The notes: generated by a model from the sequence alone, not told the origin. Positions 5,298 to 6,960 are shown, counted from the first letter of the stretch. The stretch is 11,432 nucleotides of DNA from Patescibacteria group bacterium (GCA_018816445.1 JAHIVO010000028.1:1-11432), one strand, 5' to 3'. Translations and numbers: made by a program.

Positions 5298-5381
5298 TGC
5301 CGCGGGAGAGAATCGAACTCTCAAGGTGTTGCCACCACTGGATTTTAAGTCCAGCGCGTATACCAGTTCCGCCACCGCGGC
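5298..5381 (-). tRNA. tRNA-Leu(TAA), class II (long variable arm), CCA not encoded
   Basis: Minus-strand fold: acceptor GCCGCGG/CCGCGGC, 3-bp D-stem with long D-loop, anticodon stem CTGGA/TCCAG with loop CTTAAAA (anticodon UAA), variable-arm stem GGTG/CACC, T-arm GAGAG-TTCGATT-CTCTC, discriminator A. Confidence 0.85.
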
Positions 5382-5636
5382 TCATTTGTCAATAAGAGTA
5401 TTTTTTAACATTGCCTTTATGGATGCTTTACCTTTTGAGATTTTAAAGTATCGTTCTCTTTTTTCAGCATCATCTTTATTGTTAAATACTTCATAAAAAA
5501 TTAATTTTATAGGGAGTCTATTTTTCGTAAATGGACTTCTTCCTTTTTTATGTTCGTTTAATCTCCGAGTGAGATTATAAGTTAATCCACAGTATAATTG
5601 TTTGTTTGAAAGTAAAAGTAAATAAATGTAGTACAT
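5382..5636 (-). CDS. Small GIY-YIG nuclease family protein (COG2827/YhbQ-like, ~84 aa); ORF is open upstream to 5663
   Basis: MYYIYLLLSNKQLYCGLTYNLTRRLNEHKKG carries GIY (YIY), YIG (YCG), Arg and Glu (NEH) motifs. The TGA stop abuts tRNA-Leu position +1. About 28% GC. Confidence 0.75.
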   Translation of the reverse strand: MYYIYLLLLSNKQLYCGLTYNLTRRLNEHKKGRSPFTKNRLPIKLIFYEVFNNKDDAEKRERYFKISKGKASIKAMLKNTLIDK

Positions 5637-5654
5637 ATTTGTATGTATACCACC

Positions 5655-5705
5655 CTGCACCACTAAAGGGTGCAGGATAGCTGTGAACCCTTTAGTGGTT
5701 CACAG
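5655..5705 (-). repeat. Paired hairpins with mutually complementary loops (ctgcacc-actaaag-ggtgcag and ctgtgaacc-ctttagt-ggttcacag) in the GIY-YIG 5' leader
   Basis: Stems of 7 bp and 9 bp. The loops actaaag and ctttagt are reverse complements, so an alternative 11-bp long-range pairing (ccactaaaggg/ccctttagtgg) is possible. Confidence 0.6.
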
Positions 5706-5723
5706 CAGTTCCGCCACCGCGGC
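5706..5723 (-). repeat. 18-nt direct repeat identical to the first 18 nt of tRNA-Leu (5364-5381); partial tRNA 5' fragment
   Basis: cagttccgccaccgcggc occurs at 5364-5381 and 5706-5723. Both copies are immediately preceded on the minus strand by a stop codon, TAG of the SpoU gene and TGA of the GIY-YIG gene respectively. Confidence 0.8.
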
Positions 5724-6188
5724 CTACTTGTTTACTATTTCAAATATGGTTATGCCTGAGGCTATGGCTACATTTAATGACTCCTTTTTGCCATACATTG
5801 GTATTTCAATAATTTCATGACATTCTTTCAGTAAGTTACTAGGCAGGCCTTTTACCTCGCTGCCGAGAAGCAGGGCTAATGGATATTTGGGTCTGAATTT
5901 AGTGTATGATATGCTTTTTTTTGACTGTTCAAGAGCGACAATATTATATCCTGCTGTTTTTAATTTTTTCAATGCGCGTTTGGTGTGCCGCCATGATTCA
6001 AAGGGGATAGATTTTTCCGCACCCAATGCTACTTTATCAATTTTAGGATGGGGCGGTGCCGGTGTAATGCCGCCAAGAAATATTTTTGTTATTCCAGCGG
6101 CATCGGCTGTTCGGAAGATAGCACCAACGTTAAAACAACTTCTAATATTATATAAAATCAGCACAAATGGTTTGGTATGCTTTATCAT
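5724..6188 (-). CDS. SPOUT (SpoU/TrmH) family RNA 2'-O-methyltransferase, TrmL-like by size (154 aa)
   Basis: LILYNIRSCFNVGAIFRTADAAG (SpoU motif 1), LLLGSEVKGLP and ESLNVAIASGITIFE (motifs 2 and 3). Stop is TAG at 5724-5726. Confidence 0.75.
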   Translation of the reverse strand: MIKHTKPFVLILYNIRSCFNVGAIFRTADAAGITKIFLGGITPAPPHPKIDKVALGAEKSIPFESWRHTKRALKKLKTAGYNIVALEQSKKSISYTKFRPKYPLALLLGSEVKGLPSNLLKECHEIIEIPMYGKKESLNVAIASGITIFEIVNK

Positions 6189-6206
6189 GCAAAGTACGTT
6201 TTATTA

Positions 6207-6219
6207 TGGTCAATGACCA
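6207..6219. promoter_or_regulatory. Perfect 13-nt palindrome TGGTCAaTGACCA just upstream of the SpoU-family gene start; possible operator
   Basis: Seen directly; lies 19 nt upstream of the minus-strand ATG at 6188. Confidence 0.25.
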
Positions 6220-6225
6220 CGAGCA

Positions 6226-6358
6226 AATTCAGCAGAGGTGGATGAGTTGAGTGGAGCGAGAGAGGGGACTCGCCCGTCCTCCGCAGAAGCAGGTTTCTGC
6301 TTCGGAGGGTGGAAACCCCCGACCTTTTCCCCCGCCTGCCAAAGCGGAGTAGAATAAT
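6226..6358. repeat. GC-rich hairpin element, second copy of the family seen at 1-205
   Basis: cctccgcagaagcagg...ctgcttcggagg stem-loop. Terminal ccaaagcggagtagaataata resembles ccaagctgcggagtataatagcgg at 166-190. Confidence 0.35.
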
Positions 6359-6404
6359 ACTCTTATATATCTAGGTTCTAATTGTCGGGGTATTAAGTTT
6401 TAAA

Positions 6405-6480
6405 TGGAGCGGCAGACCGGACTCGAACCGGCGACCTTTTCCTTGGCAAGGAAACGTTCTACCAACTGAACTACTGCCGC
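6405..6480 (-). tRNA. tRNA-Gly(GCC), CCA encoded
   Basis: Acceptor GCGGCAG/CTGCCGC, D-arm GTTC-AGTTGGTA-GAAC, anticodon stem TTTCC/GGAAA with loop TTGCCAA, T-arm GCCGG-TTCGAGT-CCGGT, discriminator T plus CCA. Confidence 0.9.
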
Positions 6481-6504
6481 GTATTTGCTGCTGCGGCGGG
6501 CAGG

Positions 6505-6538
6505 TTGGCAAGGAAACGTTCTAGCCAACTGAACTACT
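6505..6538 (-). pseudogene. Partial tRNA-Gly copy (D-arm to anticodon loop, ~33/34 nt with one 1-nt insertion) lying 24 nt 5' of the intact tRNA-Gly
   Basis: ttggcaaggaaacgttctagccaactgaactact versus tRNA-Gly ttggcaaggaaacgttctaccaactgaactact (6444-6475). The flanks do not restore an acceptor stem or anticodon stem. Confidence 0.7.
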
Positions 6539-6624
6539 CTCGCGCGTCCAAATGGTGCTATCGGTTTCATTTCTCCGCATTCGCGGAGCAACTACACCTT
6601 TCGCACGCATTTCTCCTTTTCCTC

Positions 6625-6746
6625 GCTGCGTATAATTACGCAGCTCGGATTGTTATTTTTAAATTGTTAAGAACCGTGATGAGAATCTTTTGCGATTCCT
6701 TCTTTACTCGCCGCGTCGTATAGTATATACGCAGCTCGTATTTTTT
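6625..6746 (+). repeat. Two copies of a hairpin plus T-run unit sharing tacgcagctcg (6625-6660 and 6713-6746); terminator-like on the plus strand
   Basis: gctgcgta-taat-tacgcagc followed by tcggattgttattttt. cgtata-gta-tatacg(cagctcg) followed by tattttttattt. Confidence 0.35.
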
Positions 6747-6763
6747 ATTTATACTAGCTCAAG

Positions 6764-6837
6764 TGGAGGCCACGGGCGGAATTGAACCGCCGATAGAGGT
6801 TTTGCAGACCCCTGCCTTACCACTTGGCTACGTGGCC
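6764..6837 (-). tRNA. tRNA-Cys(GCA), CCA encoded
   Basis: Acceptor GGCCACG/CGTGGCC, D-arm GCC-AAGTGGTAA-GGC, anticodon stem GGGGT/ACCTC with loop CTGCAAA, T-arm GGCGG-TTCAATT-CCGCC, discriminator T plus CCA. Confidence 0.9.
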
Positions 6838-6870
6838 TAATATTGTTATATTGTTTAAAAATTGTTAAGG
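6838..6870 (-). promoter_or_regulatory. AT-rich promoter-like motif cttaacaattt(t/a)taaa..., repeated at 6649-6672; candidate tRNA promoter (-35-like TTAACA)
   Basis: attgttatWtttWaaattgttaag occurs twice, each 5' of a tRNA or pseudo-tRNA on the minus strand. Hexamer assignment is uncertain. Confidence 0.3.
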
Positions 6871-6960
6871 TTTTGTCTCCCTGCGGGAGATGTCCCGAGG
6901 GGACACAGACCCCTGCCTGGATCCTGCCCCGCTGAATAGCGGGGACTTGGCTACGTGGCC
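6869..6960 (-). pseudogene. Degenerate copy of the tRNA-Cys 5' half (positions ~1-43) interrupted by two GC-rich hairpin insertions, one in the D-loop and one in the anticodon loop
   Basis: cttggctacgtggcc (6946-6960) equals the tRNA-Cys 5' end (6823-6837). cagacccctgcct (6906-6918) and ggttttg (6869-6875) also match tRNA-Cys. The insertions are ~27 nt (ggatcctgccccgctgaatagcggggac) and 30 nt (tctccctgcgggagatgtcccgaggggaca). Confidence 0.65.

Follow-up and report, generated by a model that had tools for sequence, protein, structure and literature searches.

A stretch of 11,432 nucleotides from a Patescibacteria group bacterium (GCA_018816445.1, JAHIVO010000028.1:1-11432), referred to here at its full length as the window, carries tRNA genes for leucine, glycine and cysteine, each with a partial copy of itself on its 5′ side. 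These fragments are probably the remnants of resident tRNA genes that were hit in a loop by a homing-like selfish cassette, which would have brought with it a replacement tRNA gene of the same anticodon, a reading that is drawn from sequence comparison with related genomes. At the leucine site the cassette would consist of a double hairpin, a gene for an 84-aa GIY-YIG protein and tRNA-Leu, and would have entered the D-loop at about position 18. At the glycine site it would be a 174-nt segment with inverted-repeat ends and a foreign tRNA-Gly(GCC), entered exactly between positions 38 and 39 so that both resident halves survive, and at the cysteine site a hairpin-ridden 5′ fragment would be the sole remnant of the displaced copy.

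The leucine, glycine and cysteine sites

The minus strand carries all three tRNA genes, and the coordinates of the array given below refer to that strand throughout. Each tRNA was locally aligned against its own 400-nt flanks, with 300 shuffles as the null, and the observed score of the partial copy was reached by 0 of 300 shuffles in each case. All three intact tRNAs are called by both ARAGORN and Rfam (61–73 bits). The copies had been noticed in a sequence-only reading of the window, which allowed that such short similarities might vanish under proper alignment statistics; they survive, and the statement that all three genes have an upstream self-copy is borne out. Since three independent assemblies (ENA, NCBI and Logan) are 99.7–100% identical over the Leu/Gly/Cys region, the partial copies are not an assembly artefact. 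The closest species representatives of the source are Magasanikbacteria-like metagenome-assembled genomes, with an amino acid identity of at most 68% in the SpoU-family methyltransferase encoded within the array.

At the leucine site, the intact tRNA-Leu(UAA) (5297-5381; ARAGORN, Rfam tRNA 61.1 bits), presumably the functional copy delivered with or after the cassette, is preceded by an open reading frame (ORF) for an 84-aa GIY-YIG protein of the UPF0213 or prokaryotic Slx1-like type (5382-5636; Pfam PF01541, PDB 1ywl/1zg2, substitution rates), the TGA stop codon of which abuts position +1 of the tRNA. Upstream of the ORF lies a displaced tRNA-Leu copy, the 5′ end of which (positions 1-18; 5706-5723) is an exact 18-nt match, identical to the adjacent intact gene and 342 nt from it start to start (324 nt gap). 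Its D-loop holds a double hairpin (5654-5705; minimum free energy (MFE) -29.1, z = -6.2), made of hp1 (5681-5705), with the loop core CCACTAAAGGG, and hp2 (5654-5676), with the reverse-complement loop core CCCTTTAGTGG. After the hairpins follows a D-loop remnant, TGGTATAC (5645-5652; read from the sequence), which is also present as GGTATACGCGC in loci L084, L085, L090 and L093. The copy had been described as an 18-mer; the exact 18-mer stands, although the copy in fact resumes past the hairpins and covers roughly positions 1-24. No 3′ partner for this outer tRNA-Leu was found in the flank alignments.

The fragment begins directly past the stop codon of the SpoU-family methyltransferase gene (5724-6188; Pfam), which lies outside the element and serves as a syntenic anchor in loci L004–L006 and L085; in L006 it is the intact tRNA-Leu that begins at this point, so that, compared with L006, the window has 342 nt inserted after tRNA-Leu position 18. 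An assignment of the SpoU protein to TrmL, the tRNA-Leu wobble methylase, was unsupported: all NCBIfam models stayed below cut-off, and the best partial matches were to RlmB and TrmH. The gene stands directly upstream of the GIY-YIG gene, and a reported fusion of GIY-YIG and TrmH-type domains might reflect the same kind of neighbourhood and not a functional link.

The glycine site contains a gene nested within a gene. The 5′ half of the outer, resident tRNA-Gly(GCC) (positions 1-38; 6505-6543) has its own acceptor strand, GCGAGAG, and is preceded by the motif CCATTTGGACGC, which precedes the intact tRNA-Gly in L085 and L006 too; local alignment recovered positions 6-38 with one indel, the true span being positions 1-38. 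At position 38/39 the gene is interrupted by a 174-nt insert (6331-6504), the ends of which (CCTGCCCGCC...GGCAGGCGGG) pair with each other, and which holds the intact inner tRNA-Gly(GCC) (6405-6480; ARAGORN, Rfam 72.8 bits), 24 nt from the 5′ fragment. The outer gene then continues with positions 39-55 (6314-6330), the match beginning exactly at 39, is interrupted again in its T-loop by a 41-nt GC-rich hairpin (6273-6313; MFE -21.1, z = -4.0), and ends with the 3′ side of the T-loop, the 3′ strand of the T-stem, the acceptor strand CTCTCGC and TCCA (6252-6272). When the 174-nt and 41-nt inserts were removed in silico, ARAGORN recognized a 77-nt canonical tRNA-Gly(GCC); in its intron-aware or relaxed mode, it left the outer genes undetected. 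The upstream fragment that had been noted at this site is thus real, yet it is not a 5′ piece only, as a whole second gene wraps the intact one.

The outer gene differs by 1 nt from the uninterrupted orthologue at the same site in L085. The inner gene differs from the outer one at nine places, made up of a D-loop indel and of four base pairs that are swapped in a compensatory manner (in the acceptor and T stems), and from the L085 gene at 9–10 positions, so that, judged by these differences, the inner tRNA-Gly is a separately evolved copy. No target-site duplication was seen at Gly 38/39. The termini of the insert (CCTGCCCGC...GGCAGGCGGG) recur in L085 around an insert that carries an intact tRNA-Lys and breaks a resident tRNA-Lys after A37. 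This outer Lys gene is complete and splices in silico to tRNA-Lys(CUU), and it has in its T-loop a hairpin that is analogous to the glycine one and has similar ends. For further copies of the ends CCTGCCCGCC and GGCAGGCGGG, 11 kb of this genome was covered, and many short matches elsewhere are coding sequence.

The cysteine site is the most scrambled of the three. The displaced 5′ fragment of tRNA-Cys (6869-6960; alignment, fold z = -3.0 and -3.3) covers positions 1-16, 22-34 and 35-41, i.e., an exact block followed by blocks of 13 nt and 7 nt. In place of positions 17-21 there is a 26-nt hairpin (6919-6944), and the anticodon is split at 34/35 by two mini-hairpins that together measure 30 nt (6876-6905). 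Between the fragment and the intact tRNA-Cys(GCA) (6764-6837; ARAGORN, Rfam 66.8 bits) lies a 31-nt AT-rich leader, B1 (6838-6868), of which a second copy, B2, lies at about 6651-6673 (B1/B2 alignment, reached by 2 of 300 shuffles), and just downstream of the intact gene lies E1 (6687-6741, limits approximate), which partially duplicates the initial ~55 nt of the Cys-Gly spacer (score 46, 0 of 300 shuffles). No 3′ partner for the outer Cys was found, a stretch resembling Cys positions 18-55 at ~6672-6708 being not significant (7 of 300 shuffles). A simple tandem duplication is out, since the leader B1 is not repeated upstream of the outer fragment. The spacer duplicate and the repeated leader suggest that the incoming Cys DNA may have been copied from a locus of the orthologous type.

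Two further features of this region were observed. B1 contains a sigma-70-like match (6839-6868; TTAACA, 18 nt, AATATT; a consensus match only) that ends 2 nt before tRNA-Cys, and the incoming tRNA-Cys may have brought its own promoter. The Cys-Gly spacer itself is a structured, conserved segment of ~105 nt (window 6544-6650, minus strand; L085 2102-2198; L006 5786-5889), with the layout ATCCGAG, a variable hairpin, GAGGAAAAGGAGAAATG and, right before tRNA-Gly, the end CCATTTGGACGC. Its long-range helix covaries (GTGC/GCAC, GTAC/GTAC, ATAT/ATAT), with 9 of the 25 predicted pairs compensatory among three sequences; it had no Rfam match and no common reading frame, and may be an undescribed small RNA from tRNA processing.

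The relatives indicate which of the copies are resident. The array ...Cys, Gly, SpoU, Leu(UAA) is common to L004–L006, and L085 has it with a GIY-YIG gene added. The leucine site is empty in L004–L006 and filled in the window and L085; the glycine and cysteine sites are filled in the window and empty in L085 and L006, where the Cys fragment and the extra DNA after tRNA-Cys are absent from the orthologous arrays. The uninterrupted tRNA-Gly of L085 and the tRNA-Leu after the SpoU stop codon in L006 point to the outer copies being the resident genes at their ancestral positions, and the intact genes the newcomers that arrived with the inserted DNA. The earlier proposal that the fragments are footprints was upheld in this respect, as these two loci place resident genes where the window has fragments. 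Likewise, the proposal of recurrent independent events agrees with a leucine insert that is common to the window and L085, glycine and cysteine events absent from L085, and an event of L085's own at tRNA-Lys, which argues for separate events.

A recurrent GIY-YIG module across Patescibacteria

The GIY-YIG ORF matches Pfam PF01541 with E = 7.7e-15, and among 19 homologues the residues Y5, Y15, G17, H29 and E49 never vary and R25 and N53 hardly do. Its profile matched solved structures of UPF0213 proteins, and not I-TevI, most closely (1ywl, E = 2.3e-13; 1zg2, E = 1.7e-12), with a weak match to SLX1 (E = 0.0085), whereas NCBIfam and PHROG models gave no match to the 84-aa protein. The homologues are Patescibacteria proteins of 82–87 aa. 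As no relatives of the ORF were found in IMG/VR viral contigs, a phage vector was rejected. Where the synonymous rate (dS) was measurable, the ratio of non-synonymous to synonymous rates (dN/dS) was 0.04–0.06, i.e., strong purifying selection, and the ORF is therefore a working gene.

Ten loci were fetched for six homologues, giving five further genomic contexts of the leucine-type module and the isoacceptors UAA, UAG and CAA. The order was the same in all of them: ~18 nt of the tRNA-Leu 5′ end, hairpin 1 (CCACTAAAGGG), hairpin 2 (CCCTTTAGTGG), (T)GGTATAC(GCGC) as the rest of the D-arm, the ORF, 3–9 nt, and an intact tRNA-Leu. In nine distinct copies the two hairpin stems were 100% and 97.8% paired (slid controls, 29–49%), with nine pairs showing compensatory double changes and a covariation score that was reached by 0 of 500 shuffles. 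A kissing interaction of the two loops was considered and rejected: the loops are 90% paired yet show zero compensatory change, and we read them as a single conserved motif, present a second time in inverted form. The hairpins have hardly any G-U pairs, and the advantage of the sense over the antisense strand in folding is slight (p = 0.018). Given the loop complementarity that lacks compensatory support and the near absence of G-U pairs, the fold could function in either DNA or RNA.

In ~0.9 Mb of fetched DNA of the candidate phyla radiation (CPR) the double hairpin occurred only beside GIY-YIG genes, and in ~1.17 Mb only at the original loci. The leucine-type hairpin was absent from more distant GIY-YIG loci, where different hairpin variants were seen. 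L092 has this leucine-type hairpin within the T-loop of a 3′ fragment of tRNA-Gly(UCC); immediately downstream of it comes a second GIY-YIG gene, the identity of which is only 32%, and the hairpin is therefore more conserved than the protein. The GC-rich inserts of the window, which is 40% GC, all fold stably (z -3 to -6), and the strong hairpins outside the tRNA array look like terminators. A palindromic fill-in at hairpin-capped breaks, analogous to P-nucleotides, was rejected as a source of the hairpins, as they do not repeat the neighboring tRNA sequence in inverted form and are conserved from one locus to another.

Searching with a family profile gave 80 metagenome loci (38–70% identity). 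A tRNA on the same strand was found within 200 nt of the ORF in 45 of the 80, compared with 2.1% of random CPR windows (p about 4e-67), and a same-strand tRNA or tmRNA abutted the ORF in 56 of the 80 (54 of the 71 with adequate flanks) when tmRNAs and overlaps with the ORF end were counted; Rfam added two tmRNA cases beyond these, and in two loci a tRNA was present on the opposite strand alone. The surroundings took two forms. In the first arrangement, the 5′ part of a tRNA, ending at a break in its D-, anticodon- or T-loop, is followed by a double hairpin with two mutually complementary cores, the ORF and a complete tRNA of the same anticodon, with isotypes that include Ser, Leu, Gln and Trp. 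In the second, hairpins start from the CCA end of an intact tRNA or tmRNA (CCA followed by TG(A/C/T)ACC...) and lead to another ...GCCA and then to the ORF; the 3′-end hairpin of tRNA-Asn in L103 has the 8-nt repeat CGGAGCCA on both sides. The 110 nt before the start codons had a mean MFE of -35.6, versus -22.8 for shuffled sequence and -13.9 inside the ORF.

Over all loci, the upstream partial copies begin at position 1 and end in loops (17-22, 30-36, 71-73), and the downstream ones begin in or past loops and reach the 3′ end. Further nested cases were found in L062 (Trp), L085 (Lys), L092 (Gly), L096 (Ser) and L148 (Gln); in L062, perfect inverted repeats of 15 nt border the insert, which lies at 37/38, and the outer Trp gene there is without positions 38-57. 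Several divergent GIY-YIG copies stand at different tRNAs in the single genome of L092. Among loci chosen through SpoU only, 5 of 48 tRNAs (10%) carried partial copies. A class of elements targeting tRNA genes, as the sequence-only reading had proposed, is supported by the recurrence of the GIY-YIG and double-hairpin module at many tRNAs and at tmRNA and by its lateral transfer, described below, and the survey of other genomes that it had suggested did turn up partial copies. That no cargo other than the GIY-YIG cassette has survived, as the same reading held, is plausible. Two of its claims about the geometry failed: the cassettes would bring a whole replacement tRNA, as indicated by the compensatory swaps at Gly and the co-transfer of tRNA-Leu(UAG), and do not regenerate the 5′ region only, and the pattern is not purely 5′, with 3′ fragments lying downstream at the Gly site of the window and in many other loci.

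Several of these loci show variants of their own. A tmRNA followed by same-strand hairpins and a GIY-YIG ORF, 125–330 nt past the tmRNA 3′ end, was seen in L111, L119, L125 and L139 (also in L110, L113 and L114), with the hairpin block itself duplicated in L111 and L119. In L092 (2700-3350) and L006 (1050-1450), tRNA-Gly(UCC) is followed by two or three successive 3′-end fragments (ATTCCCCCTACCCGCTT and similar), each preceded by hairpins or by large GC-rich T-loop inserts, which look like onion-like layers of invasion. In L072 (~840-1040, minus strand), there are two extra tandem copies of a 54-nt leader with tRNA-Lys(UUU) positions 1-19, together with neither hairpin nor ORF; this repeat is clean, segmental and broken in the D-loop, and is reminiscent of amplification of the SegB type. 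At tRNA-Pro(CGG) in L117 (~2230-2500), a 5′ fragment and a double hairpin without an ORF lie upstream, and hairpins with a GIY-YIG ORF downstream, so that hairpin-only derivatives coexist with the autonomous form.

The movement of the module was followed by comparing L084 with two other loci. L084 and L093 share a 434-nt block of 94% identity that extends from the first base of the upstream fragment to the last base of tRNA-Leu; over 200 nt on either side the two sequences cannot be aligned (42–46% identity), and the other shared stretches are 23S rRNA. For L084 and L093, identity is about 87% in 23S rRNA, 92.2% in the ORF and 100% in tRNA-Leu(UAG), with dS 0.44, whereas for L084 and L090 the values are 93.4%, 79.6% and 74.7%, with dS 1.67. 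The ORF and tRNA-Leu thus pair L084 with L093, while 23S rRNA pairs it with L090, a conflict which, in this one three-genome comparison, indicates that the module including its tRNA moves laterally. In L090, the upstream fragment (GCCCAGG...) is unlike its own downstream tRNA (GCCGCCG...) and equals the tRNA of the syntenic L093, as would be expected if the fragment were the remnant of a displaced resident gene.

Mechanism and competing explanations

The sequence of events that we favor would start with the predicted GIY-YIG nuclease breaking the DNA of a tRNA gene, either within a loop or at its 3′ end. Repair would then copy a cassette-bearing allele, in the manner of homing, with the conserved tRNA sequence serving as portable homology. 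The insertion would be harmless as the cassette supplies the tRNA, and loss of the cassette would then mean loss of the only working copy; co-orientation with the tRNA would let the ORF use the tRNA promoter. Hairpin-only inserts would be either non-autonomous relatives or secondary hits tolerated in dead copies only. A bolder version, which we put forward tentatively as possible and with less conviction, is that of a distinct class of self-compensating "tRNA replacement cassettes", in which an Slx1-like nuclease and a structured cis-element break the loops of tRNA and tmRNA genes and build up nested, onion-like layers; here the double hairpin may be a DNA cruciform or an RNA, and the element's own copy of its target gene may make the host dependent on it. 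It is more speculative still that a transcript of fragment and hairpin guides the nuclease to intact tRNA genes.

Several observations weigh against the homing-like explanation. The 84-aa protein is a catalytic domain only, without NUMOD, helix-turn-helix or zinc finger; that it cleaves DNA, and where, we infer from its sequence, as we do the role of the hairpins, the repair pathway, the target of the nuclease and the link of the GIY-YIG protein to the glycine and cysteine events, which are without the ORF. This last link is an assumption, both inserts being without a nuclease gene, and their inverted-repeat ends suggest that they may belong to a separate hairpin-ended family. Plain homing predicts replacement and not a nested insertion that keeps both halves, and the end-joining step that is needed is ad hoc. 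The outer Gly gene shows zero decay, which means that selection still acts on it or that the event happened very recently. No strain-level polymorphism of empty and filled sites was found for the window among the ENA, NCBI and Logan assemblies, and the B1/B2 and E1/E2 repeats of the cysteine region are left unexplained in detail by the cassette model. For a purely selfish endonuclease, purifying selection as strong as that on the ORF would be unusual, and it could reflect a cellular role; the family to which the ORF belongs was earlier seen as mostly vertically inherited and repair-related (PMC1564403).

The last two points lead to the alternative that the GIY-YIG protein is a host factor, i.e., a domesticated Slx1-like nuclease or RNA processor acting at tRNA loci, which would process co-transcripts or else resolve the structures that arise in tRNA genes rich in palindromes and highly transcribed, with fragments and hairpins as by-products of error-prone repair. 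Besides the selection on the ORF, this is favored by the ancient, mostly vertical Slx1-like lineage, in which one fusion with a TrmH-type tRNA methyltransferase has been reported (PMC1564403), by the constant co-orientation of the ORF with the tRNA or tmRNA, suggesting co-transcription, and by the slight difference in folding between the two strands of the hairpins. We nevertheless regard it as rather unlikely, as the phylogeny of module and tRNA conflicts with that of 23S rRNA, the similarity block stops exactly at the module ends, close relatives have empty sites, divergent copies stand at different tRNAs in L092, and the replacement tRNAs appear to be foreign versions and not repaired resident copies. 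It is quite improbable that no mobile element was involved and that slippage, template switching or unequal recombination made local duplications in a fragile tRNA array, which then decayed. Template switching had been offered as an alternative from the start, and it fits the clean tandem repeats of leader and tRNA-Lys 1-19 in L072; the direct repeats B1/B2 and E1/E2 and the identity of the Leu fragment with the adjacent gene agree with local duplication as well. It is disfavored at the glycine site, where the inner gene, with its four compensatory swaps, is not a copy of the resident one that matches L085, and further by the lateral transfer and by the recurrence of the double hairpin, the ORF and the CCTGCCCGC...GGCAGGCGGG ends at junctions in other genomes and other tRNAs.

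That the outer genes are still functional, with the inserts acting as introns or processed spacers and the halves joined at the RNA level as in the split and multi-intron tRNAs of archaea, we hold to be very improbable. Introns are unusually common in Patescibacteria tRNA genes (PMC13011429), the outer Gly is intact save for its two inserts (at 38/39 and in the T-loop), the ends of the 174-nt insert pair, and the outer Lys of L085 is likewise complete. However, the outer Leu and Cys have no 3′ partner, the outer Trp of L062 lacks positions 38-57, and an intact gene of the same anticodon is always present, making splicing unneeded. An Rfam scan of 5000-7300 at E <= 10 left the fragments, hairpins, spacer and inserts unmatched and gave no Intron_gpI, and on inspection the junctions have no bulge-helix-bulge, that at 38/39 having 7 nt and 4 nt unpaired around a 6-bp helix in place of a 3-4-3 arrangement. 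Extremely unlikely, finally, are ordinary attachment-site (att) scars of a phage or island that was integrated by an integrase and later deleted, in spite of tRNA and tmRNA genes being classic integration targets in which integration leaves partial tRNA duplications (PMC9897764). The sequence-only reading had seen in the fragments a mirror image of such scars, which did not hold: there is no integrase domain among the 10 ORFs of the 11.4-kb window, and the recurring partner is a GIY-YIG gene. An integrase leaves 3′ fragments at the far end of kilobase-sized elements, whereas here 5′ fragments lie 24–324 nt upstream, the inserts measure 103–342 nt, the duplicated 5′ parts are 1-18, 1-38 and 1-41, and both Gly halves are kept around a complete, apparently foreign tRNA. 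Among these explanations, resident genes displaced by a homing-like cassette is the one that we prefer.

Other features of the window and comparison with known systems

Outside the array, the window contains a cluster of three genes (237-5191, minus strand) that resembles a system for peptide ligation or modification. The products are a 779-aa protein in which a sugar-transfer-type ATP-grasp domain is fused to a MATCAP-like peptidase, a 517-aa protein with PKD and seven-transmembrane (7TM) inactive-transglutaminase parts, and a RimK-like ATP-grasp protein of 317 aa. Two adjacent genes of the orotidine monophosphate (OMP) decarboxylase family (7937-8605 and 8608-9537) are mutual paralogues, with ~64.5% DNA identity over 355 nt. 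Between the tRNA array and the gene at 7088-7591 lies a GC-containing hairpin with a perfect 12-bp stem (7057-7086), bordered by A-runs and T-runs (CTAAAAAGGCCC...GGGCCTTTTTAG), which probably terminates transcription in both directions and explains the weak leader-like Rfam matches nearby.

In the searchable full-text literature, including a study of Patescibacteria tRNA introns and a survey of the GIY-YIG superfamily, the arrangement is not described, and a cassette type beside the tRNA and tmRNA genes of Patescibacteria appears to be undescribed so far. If the cassette explanation is true, the Patescibacteria, with their small genomes and large share of bacterial diversity, host widespread, unannotated and tiny selfish cassettes at these genes. 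They would provide a route for the wholesale replacement of tRNA genes by foreign versions, which bears on tRNA phylogenies, on the evolution of identity elements and on disagreement between tRNA and species trees. The nested genes and fragments also confuse tRNA annotation, the interrupted outer genes being invisible to ARAGORN and Infernal, and an 84-aa predicted nuclease with a defined nucleic-acid partner would be a possible tool.

The closest likeness is to SegB and the free-standing GIY-YIG endonucleases of T-even phages. SegB cleaves within tRNA genes, where it causes segmental duplication (PMC13096335), and it promotes its own inheritance together with the flanking tRNAs (PMC2330249; PMC13096335), and here too a GIY-YIG gene lies among tRNA genes, and nuclease gene and tRNA travel together. 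SegB is however a phage-borne protein of ~220 aa with a DNA-binding region, whereas the protein described here is a bare catalytic domain of 84 aa, Slx1-like or of the UPF0213 type, in cellular CPR genomes. The catalytic residues, the filled and empty alleles with precise junctions, and the lateral spread are all features of Seg and I-Tev cassettes; the DNA-binding module of these is missing, the lineage is different, and neither a double hairpin nor displaced resident tRNA fragments, both of which the module of the window has, are described for Seg elements. By sequence, the ORF belongs to UPF0213 (YhbQ-type), a minimal GIY-YIG domain of ~85–105 aa with no established function and no reported association with tRNA genes, and the CPR members studied here behave like the cargo of a mobile cassette; this enigmatic prokaryotic Slx1-like family would thereby gain a concrete biological context. 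Eukaryotic members of the family cut branched DNA (PMC1564403).

Short GC-rich hairpin inserts in an AT-rich genome, with paired termini and able to enter genes, recall miniature inverted-repeat transposable elements (MITEs), repetitive extragenic palindromic (REP) sequences and the Rickettsia palindromic elements. The inserts differ from them in sitting in tRNA-derived loops, in that one carries a tRNA gene, and in leaving no target-site duplication at Gly 38/39. Integrative elements, reportedly (Williams in 2002; the Islander resource), insert into tRNA and tmRNA genes with att duplications and restore them. The targets are the same, the element keeps the gene functional, and a partial tRNA is left as a scar; such elements, however, use tyrosine or serine integrases, are kilobases long, restore the 3′ part only and leave their 3′ fragment far away, unlike the cassettes, which have no integrase, measure 0.1–0.35 kb, bring a whole tRNA, leave 5′ fragments upstream and 3′ fragments downstream, and break the D-, anticodon- and T-loops.

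Intron homing, like the process proposed here, inserts into a tRNA gene, often in the anticodon loop, spreads by exon homology and leaves the host gene functional. In that case, function is kept by self-splicing of the RNA, whereas here no ribozyme was detectable in the inserts and a duplicate, complete tRNA gene is carried along; both exons, as in a tRNA intron, are present at Gly, Leu and Cys are without a 3′ exon of their own, and the interrupted gene is not the copy that is needed. Split and multi-intron tRNA genes are found in Archaea (Nanoarchaeum, Thermoproteales); they are broken at 37/38 as well as in the D- and T-loops, with complementary sequences rich in GC at the break, all of which recalls the sites of the window. 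The archaeal pieces are joined by a splicing endonuclease and a ligase and are the only copy of the gene, whereas here the host is a bacterium, an intact copy is present and several of the outer copies are incomplete. The idea that mobile elements fragment tRNA genes is said to go back to Randau and Söll, and the cassettes would bear on the long-standing question of the origin of split and interrupted tRNA genes. Besides self-splicing and integrase-restored att sites, they would represent a third harmless way into an essential RNA gene, namely to bring one's own copy.

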